In this document: positions 6,293 to 7,033 of the stretch, piece by piece
How positions within the stretch are numbered: the stretch's first letter is position 1
Layout of the letters: every line of letters begins with the position of its first letter
Source of the DNA: a virus
Length of the DNA stretch: 12,489 nucleotides
UHGV virus genome: UHGV-0192751
Direction: 5' to 3' (one strand)
Program-made: the position numbers and the translations under genes
The notes under the pieces: model-generated
Seen by the model: the letters and a program-made list of their open reading frames with translations, nothing else
Databases searched by the model: none
What the model was told of the DNA's origin: nothing

Positions 6293-7033
6293 ATGCCAAT
6301 TCCAACTCAATCACAGATCGGCGGTGAGCAGCAGACCGCGCAGGCCATTGCCGATTCGGTGTCTACCCAGATGCGCGTAGCGATTCCAGGCATCATTCAG
6401 TCGTTCGATCCTGACGCTGTTACTTGCACAGTAGAGGTGGCGCTTCGCGGTATTGTTGGCGACGACTCCACCGAATTAAAACCGCTGGTGGATGTGCCGG
6501 TTATCTTCCCGCGCGGCGGCGGTTGCACGCTGACCTTTCCGGTAAAAGAAGGCGACGAGTGCCTGCTGCTCTTTGCCGACCGTTGCATCGATTTCTGGTG
6601 GCAGAGCGGCGGCGTTCAGGAGACCGTCGATCCGCGACAGCATGACTTATCTGATGCGTTCGCCATCGTTGGCCCGCAGTCGCAAGCACAGAAAATCAGC
6701 GGTATCAGTACCAGCGCCGCGCAGCTGCGAACCGATGATGGTGCGGCGTTCGTAGAGGTTGCCGCAGGACATAACATCACCGTTCAAACACCGGGCCAGC
6801 TCACGGCTACGGCTGAAGGTGGAACGACAATCACATCCCCGACTATCACGCTGAACGGCAACGTAACGATTAATGGCAATCTGTCTCAGGGAATGGGCGA
6901 AAGTGGCGGTACTGCGACGATGCTTGGGCCGGTGACGGTGACTAACGATGTGAAGGCTGGAGGTAAGAGCCTCATCCAGCATACCCATGGCGGTGTGCAG
7001 AATGGCAGCGGGAATACTACCGCGCCTAATTAA
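6293..7033 (+). CDS. Baseplate central spike protein (P2 gpV / Mu gp45-like)
   Basis: 246 aa. The C-terminal part is repeat-like and beta-rich (TITSPTITLNGNVTINGN) and has an H-T-H motif (6980-6988) near the C-terminus, as at the iron-binding apex of gpV-type spikes. Position fits. Confidence 0.7.
   Translation: MPIPTQSQIGGEQQTAQAIADSVSTQMRVAIPGIIQSFDPDAVTCTVEVALRGIVGDDSTELKPLVDVPVIFPRGGGCTLTFPVKEGDECLLLFADRCIDFWWQSGGVQETVDPRQHDLSDAFAIVGPQSQAQKISGISTSAAQLRTDDGAAFVEVAAGHNITVQTPGQLTATAEGGTTITSPTITLNGNVTINGNLSQGMGESGGTATMLGPVTVTNDVKAGGKSLIQHTHGGVQNGSGNTTAPN

Follow-up and report, generated by a model that had tools for sequence, protein, structure and literature searches.

A histidine cage loaded with Fe in the spikes of phages P2 and phi92 was reportedly published in 2012. 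In P2 gpV, HxH motifs from three symmetry-related positions surround an Fe ion buried in the Apex domain with an octahedral cage of six histidines, H197 and H199 being the published Fe ligand pair, and every characterised apex cited in the same study, that of P2 gpV and that of phi92 gp138, is reported with Fe (bioRxiv 10.1101/2023.02.25.529910). That study identifies a spike Apex domain by an HxH close to the C-terminus of the central spike protein, describes HxH spikes as carrying their own apex and spikes without HxH as carrying a PAAR protein, and reports that P2 can infect in the laboratory without the cage and also without the whole Apex (bioRxiv 10.1101/2023.02.25.529910). An iron-binding HxH region has also been described in Mu gp45, P2 gpV and Sf14 gp47 (PMC11821841). 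Here we analysed a viral DNA stretch of 12,489 nt (the window) in which a sequence-only reading had noticed an H-T-H near the C-terminus of a presumed spike. We find that the ORF in question, 6293–7033 (+), encodes the central spike in the baseplate of a temperate prophage with a contractile tail.

Identity and domains of the spike

The spike gene and the parts of its product that we distinguish are as follows, with the evidence for each.
6293..7033, plus strand: central baseplate spike gene, gp138-family membrane-puncturing spike of 246 aa plus stop (PF18352 and PF18946, homologue names, PDB sequence and fold matches)
6383..6673, plus strand: N-terminal OB-fold-like domain, aa 31–127 (PF18352, strand-rich part of the AF2 model)
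6740..6967, plus strand: putative triple-stranded beta-helix shaft, aa about 150–225 (TIGR01644 positions 66–189, beta-helix parts of solved spikes)
6968..7030, plus strand: Apex domain, aa 226–246, SLIQHTHGGVQNGSGNTTAPN (PF18946, fit to the family consensus, PDB retrieval with an apex profile)
6980..6988, plus strand: HxH histidine-cage motif H230-T231-H232 (sequence, conservation, alignment with P2 H197/H199 and Mu HIH, Fe literature)

Residues 31–127 matched PF18352, the N-terminal domain of the phi92 gp138 spike, from position 1 to 98 of the 98-position profile (E 7.8e-41, 138.5 bits against a threshold of 26.1), and the gene lies in a baseplate module between hub and wedge genes, which places the protein in the gp138 family. 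Residues 226–246 matched PF18946, 'GpV Apex motif' (33.2 bits against a gathering threshold of 20.8, E 5.4e-8, profile 3–23 of 23). In a sequence search of the PDB all significant matches were central spikes or puncturing proteins (Bas63 gp021, gp86 of 9ZD7, phage SN gp41, E217 gp43, Pa193 gp44, PhiTE and Pam3 gp20), with P2 gpV and phi92 gp138 appearing at marginal E-values only. The protein database held 2209 homologues (E up to 0.001), and most of the named ones carried the label 'membrane-puncturing spike protein' or 'phage baseplate assembly protein V', with a few mislabelled 'translation initiation factor IF-2'. RefSeq calls near-identical proteins 'membrane-puncturing spike protein', and the orthologue of E. 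coli LR-33 is annotated as gp138-family. The PHROGs matches comprised two families only, with weak or uninformative labels.

An AF2 monomer model built on a 54-sequence alignment (mean pLDDT 65.5) could serve for fold comparison of the N-terminal part alone and not for the HxH. The strand-rich part of the model coincides with the N-terminal domain, aa 31–127. Over aa 151–200 the pLDDT was 74–89 with no strands assigned, because the partner chains are missing, and over 224–239 it fell below 50, so that the model says nothing about the apex. In a Foldseek search of the PDB the 16 best matches were all central spikes (Bas63, SN Orf41, E217, Pa193, PhiTE, P2 gpV, Pam3, Mu gp45 (9KI1_V), R2 pyocin and phi92 gp138), and OB-fold ribosomal proteins came next in the list. 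Together with the two Pfam domains and the PDB sequence matches, these fold matches bear out the assignment as a spike. The N-terminal domain holds the columns that are most conserved across the family, R115, D121, P83 and W102 (MAFFT, 150 representatives). By analogy with solved baseplates of homologues, this domain probably docks the spike on the hub.

The spike lies within a contractile-tail module

The window is a contractile-tail module. Its genes run from a tube fragment (KPP10 ORF10-like) through an assembly chaperone, a tape measure with SLT, a Dit-like protein, plug, hub and three cargo ORFs to the spike, and continue with a 45-aa membrane ORF, wedge, Baseplate_J, DUF2612, tail fibre, fibre assembly and a serine invertase. 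Baseplate genes on either side of the spike are:
3767–4072: Pam3 gp18-like plug gene (PF22479)
4075..5145, plus strand: baseplate hub gene, after the plug gene (weak match to PF22759, E217 gp41 hub, 26.5 bits for a cut-off of 27; NF047561 below cut-off)
7262..7615, plus strand: baseplate wedge subunit gene, gp25/gpW-like (phrog_120 baseplate wedge subunit, E 2.7e-36)
7616–8815: Baseplate_J gene, after the wedge gene
8812–9492: DUF2612 gene, after Baseplate_J

Over its conserved parts the window DNA was 92–97% identical to E. coli chromosomal prophages and to Citrobacter phage Omnitron, and Salmonella phage SEN34 is a more distant relative.

Several other elements were seen along the module. 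The three small ORFs between hub and spike (window 5147–6290), none of which scored above a Pfam cut-off, comprise 5147–5497 (phrog_3443), with a hydrophobic, signal-like N-terminal stretch, 5579–5935 (phrog_4293), with CxxC...CxxC, and 5916–6218 (phrog_3556/6324), with a hydrophobic C-terminal helix; a terminator-like hairpin with a T-run comes after them at 6256–6275. Because related E. coli prophages carry different genes at this place (Phd/Doc toxin-antitoxin, DUF4236), the slot between hub and spike appears to be a cargo (moron) site of variable content within the baseplate operon. Directly 3′ of the spike stop, at about 7052–7085, lies a GC-rich hairpin flanked by runs of A and T (AAAAGCCCCGG...CCGGGGCTTTTT). 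One would not expect such a terminator-like element halfway along a baseplate operon. Between this hairpin and the wedge gene, the 45-aa ORF at 7121–7258 (phrog_6632, E 3e-21) encodes a hydrophobic helix. At the far end, after the fibre and fibre-assembly genes, a serine recombinase/invertase gene at 11987–12406 (PF00239) has an apparently disrupted C-terminal end, an unassigned minus-strand ORF at 11449–11802 lies between it and the fibre-assembly genes, and the fibre/invertase layout (window 11449–12489) recalls the Mu G-segment/Gin arrangement.

The H-T-H motif and its conservation

Window positions 6980–6988 read CATACCCAT (CAT ACC CAT) and encode H230-T231-H232 in frame with the spike ORF, 14 residues before the C-terminus; the motif noticed near the spike end is thus real, and the protein ends exactly as first quoted (...SLIQHTHGGVQNGSGNTTAPN). 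The same bases are also covered by a 113-aa minus-strand ORF, window 6647–6988, which starts with the ATG opposite the H232 codon, so that they could in principle belong to another gene. That reading has next to no credibility: the ORF list in which it stands is purely mechanical, the ORF lies wholly inside the spike gene, its product is rich in Arg, Ser and Cys as is typical of the antisense frame of a GC-rich gene, and the plus-strand frame is backed by homologues in the thousands and by matches to two Pfam domains. We judged it to be an antisense-frame artefact of the GC-rich spike gene.

The spike protein contains only four histidines (117, 160, 230 and 232). When the protein was shuffled 200,000 times, 4.8% of the products contained an HxH somewhere and 0.5% contained one within the last 30 residues. 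By itself the HxH is therefore only mildly unusual in this protein, and the case for it consequently rests on conservation and homology.

Both were in its favour. An HxH within the last 40 residues was found in 118 of the 120 closest homologues (best 120 of 2209), as HTH in 100, HKH in 14, HRH in two and HVH in two; the remaining two homologues are truncated fragments. H230 and H232 were invariant in alignments of 22 and of 54 full-length homologues (54–95% identity). An exhaustive search of 50%-identity cluster representatives gave 7877 relatives, the best 150 of which were aligned, 149 of them newly listed and diverged (38–92% identity over the matched stretches). Within their last 45 residues, 119 of these 149 carried an HxH, usually 11–17 residues before the C-terminus; the commonest starting points lay 17 or 18 residues from the C-terminus, with 14 or 15 residues following the second His. 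In the MAFFT alignment of the best 150 of the 7877, the H230 column held His in 127 sequences and the H232 column in 119 (about 80–85%), the rest being mostly gaps. The family apex consensus is G-[IK]-S-L-x-T-H-x-H-x-G-V-Q-x-G-x-G-x-T-G-x-P, and the window spike fits it. The sequence-only reading had offered a lack of conserved histidines in aligned homologues as the result that would count against it, and these alignments gave the opposite. The motif also ended one protein of unusual build, a 374-aa homologue (P0035) with a tandemly duplicated gp138-type N-terminal domain, a divergent shaft and a tip that still reads HTHGGVQRGG. An HxH near the C-terminus, a PF18946 match above threshold, and histidines that are conserved and aligned with known Fe ligands together place residues 226–246 among the spike Apex domains.

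The spike tip of T4 gp5 is sharpened by gp5.4, a separate PAAR-like cap protein. The window spike might be built in the same way, its HxH being due to chance or purely structural and holding no metal; the shuffles, in which an HxH turned up somewhere at the rate given above, and the family members that end in a blunt beta-helix without HxH speak for such a tip. Both histidines are, however, conserved in homologues down to about 40% identity, the Apex match lies above the Pfam cut-off, and HxH spikes are described as carrying their own apex where others carry PAAR (bioRxiv 10.1101/2023.02.25.529910). Moreover, no PAAR family match was obtained among the window ORFs scanned against Pfam, a set from which the 45-aa ORF 7121–7258 was left out, and this absence fits a self-capped spike. 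We consider a metal-free, separately capped tip very improbable, and on the aligned sequences effectively refuted by the conservation.

Comparison with P2 gpV and Mu gp45

The GenBank sequences of P2 gpV and Mu gp45 were aligned with the window spike by MAFFT, the check that the sequence-only reading had proposed; H230 and H232 fell in the columns of P2 H197 and H199 and of the Mu HIH. The P2 protein reads H195-T196-H197-K198-H199 at this place and thus also contains an HTH. The Pfam Apex register agrees with the pairing on H197/H199, and P2 H195-T196-H197 as the counterpart of the window HTH was ruled out by the spacing to G-x-T-G-x-P and by the MAFFT and Pfam registers, all of which point to the P2 'HKH'. 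Given the P2 Fe ligands and the iron-binding HxH of Mu gp45, the earlier statement that an HxH at the tip of gpV-type spikes holds a metal in characterised homologs is supported.

When the C-terminal 96 residues were searched against PDB sequences, the E-values were marginal (0.04–0.5), though HxH aligned on HxH. A profile of 40 family apex regions was needed for significant matches; it retrieved OBP gp146, gp86, PhiTE, phi92 gp138 (3PQH/3PQI) and P2 gpV (3QR7/3AQJ) from the PDB, again with HxH on HxH in the alignments shown.

The protein is, however, not a strict member of the gpV or Mu gp45 family. P2 gpV (PDB 3QR7/3QR8/3AQJ; TIGR01644; PF04717, PF18715 and PF18946) resembles the window spike in the beta-helix and apex half, including the HxH, and its gene occupies the same position, before W/J/I-like wedge and fibre genes. 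The N-terminal domain, on the other hand, is of gp138 type, and TIGR01644 (phage_P2_V) matched only aa 118–242 (profile 66–189) with 46.3 bits, 0.45 bits short of the 46.75 cut-off, so that the protein falls outside the P2 gpV subfamily as that cut-off defines it. The Pfam search (E up to 1) gave neither PF04717 (OB domain) nor PF18715 ('Phage spike trimer'), both of which P2 gpV has, and beyond the motif the P2 apex has two residues fewer. With Mu gp45 (baseplate PDB 9KI1) the window spike has only a fold-level match (Foldseek E 3.9e-4) and the apex alignment in common: the HIH, 12 residues from the Mu C-terminus, aligns with H230/H232, whereas the PDB sequence search with the window spike gave no detectable match to gp45, and PF06890, the N-terminal domain family of Mu gp45, was absent from the spike in the Pfam search.

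The phi92 gp138 protein (PDB 3PQH/3PQI; PF18352 and PF18946) has the same N-terminal domain family, length class (247 against 246 aa) and domain order (N-domain, beta-helix, apex), and its HxH is likewise followed by G-V-x-x-G; E. coli prophage proteins near-identical to the window spike are placed in the gp138 family by RefSeq. Yet whole-protein similarity is weak (E 0.11), the phi92 tip (HTHTHPVRGVETGG) has a two-residue insertion after the motif relative to the window spike, and phi92 is lytic, unlike the window, a temperate prophage of SEN34/Omnitron type. Over the whole protein, sequence and fold searches matched best (E 1e-14 to 5e-5) to the spikes of E217/PB1-like and Pam3-like myoviruses (8EON_F, 9B45_g, 4RU3, 7YFZ_w) and to Bas63 gp021 (9NDY_G). 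These phages also have the baseplate gene set of the window, with a Pam3 gp18-like plug, an E217 gp41-like hub and a Dit-like protein, but the alignments of the E217, Pam3 and Bas63 spikes end before the window apex (query positions up to about 199), and the E217-type tail, ...NNHGHLEN, contains an HxH in a local context unlike that of the window spike. The protein should therefore be filed with the gp138-type spikes, as one that shares the gpV/gp45 apex and would work like gpV and gp45.

A predicted six-histidine metal cage at the needle tip

The explanation that accounts best for these findings, and one in which we have high confidence, is a spike trimer with a six-histidine metal cage made by H230 and H232 at its tip. 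Three copies of the spike would form the needle: the N-terminal OB-fold-like domains would sit on the hub, the middle parts would wind around one another as a triple beta-helix, and the 21 C-terminal residues would make a conical Apex domain. There H230 and H232, the predicted metal ligands, two His from each of three chains, would point inwards and enclose a single metal ion in an octahedral cage. By analogy with P2 gpV and phi92 gp138, this buried ion is most probably iron. In P2, the gpV-AA mutant loses the metal and its apex unfolds. In the window spike the ion would hold the three chains in register and keep the tip compact and rigid, and sheath contraction would then drive this rigid tip through the host outer membrane. 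The present analysis shows the motif, how it is conserved and aligned with the known Fe ligands, the domains of the protein and the genes around it; we infer trimerisation, including the intertwining of the shaft, as well as metal occupancy, metal identity and mechanical role, from the homologues.

The identity of the ion is where this proposal could be varied most readily. The same mechanism might run on other chemistry, with Zn, Ni, Co or another metal in the cage instead of iron, or with additional ions at the tip. Additional ions have been suggested for Mu gp45, six-His octahedral sites can accept several divalent ions, and the identity of a metal is not readable from a sequence; in addition, the window apex (HTHGGVQNGSGNTTAPN) continues for 14 residues beyond the motif and belongs to the gp138/OBP type, not to the P2/Mu type (H-x-H-[PR]-GDSGGTTG, 12 residues). 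Against this, the cited characterised apexes, P2 gpV and phi92 gp138, were all reported with Fe, the gp138 type included (bioRxiv 10.1101/2023.02.25.529910), and we regard a cage without iron, or with further ions, as improbable. Whichever ion a six-histidine cage holds, the functional importance of a metal-loaded tip and its need for piercing should not be overstated, because the P2 cage and Apex are dispensable in laboratory infection.

Relatives with other tips

About 20% of the diverged family representatives (30 representatives; P0183, P0208, P0269 and others) had no HxH. They fall into several groups: sequences that are fragmentary or frameshifted, proteins with a blunt beta-helix end, proteins with one of two recurrent alternative C-terminal modules, and three H-x-T variants. 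Five of them end in 'GASGTF...DGIxTNI', three in 'WFES...PFL..KGY' and several bluntly in beta-helix repeats, and in three an apex-like tail retains a single histidine, with H-x-T in place of H-x-H. Since about a fifth of the diverged members do without the motif, the family can, as far as its sequences tell, function with other tips. That about one in five diverged relatives has replaced the histidine-cage apex suggests, speculatively, that spikes of this family can exchange their tips as modules; the combination of a gp138-type N-domain with a gpV-like shaft and apex in the window could stem from such an exchange, with host-envelope-specific consequences, although we rate this as unlikely.

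Implications

The H-T-H of the window spike is the known histidine-cage motif, ordinary, already described, and captured by Pfam and RefSeq. As the spike carries its own apex, no separate PAAR-type cap is expected. The finding matters little beyond correct annotation, for which the motif confirms ORF 6293–7033 as the membrane-piercing tail spike of the prophage; it may possibly be of use in tailocin engineering and in host-range studies within the SEN34/Omnitron-like prophage group.
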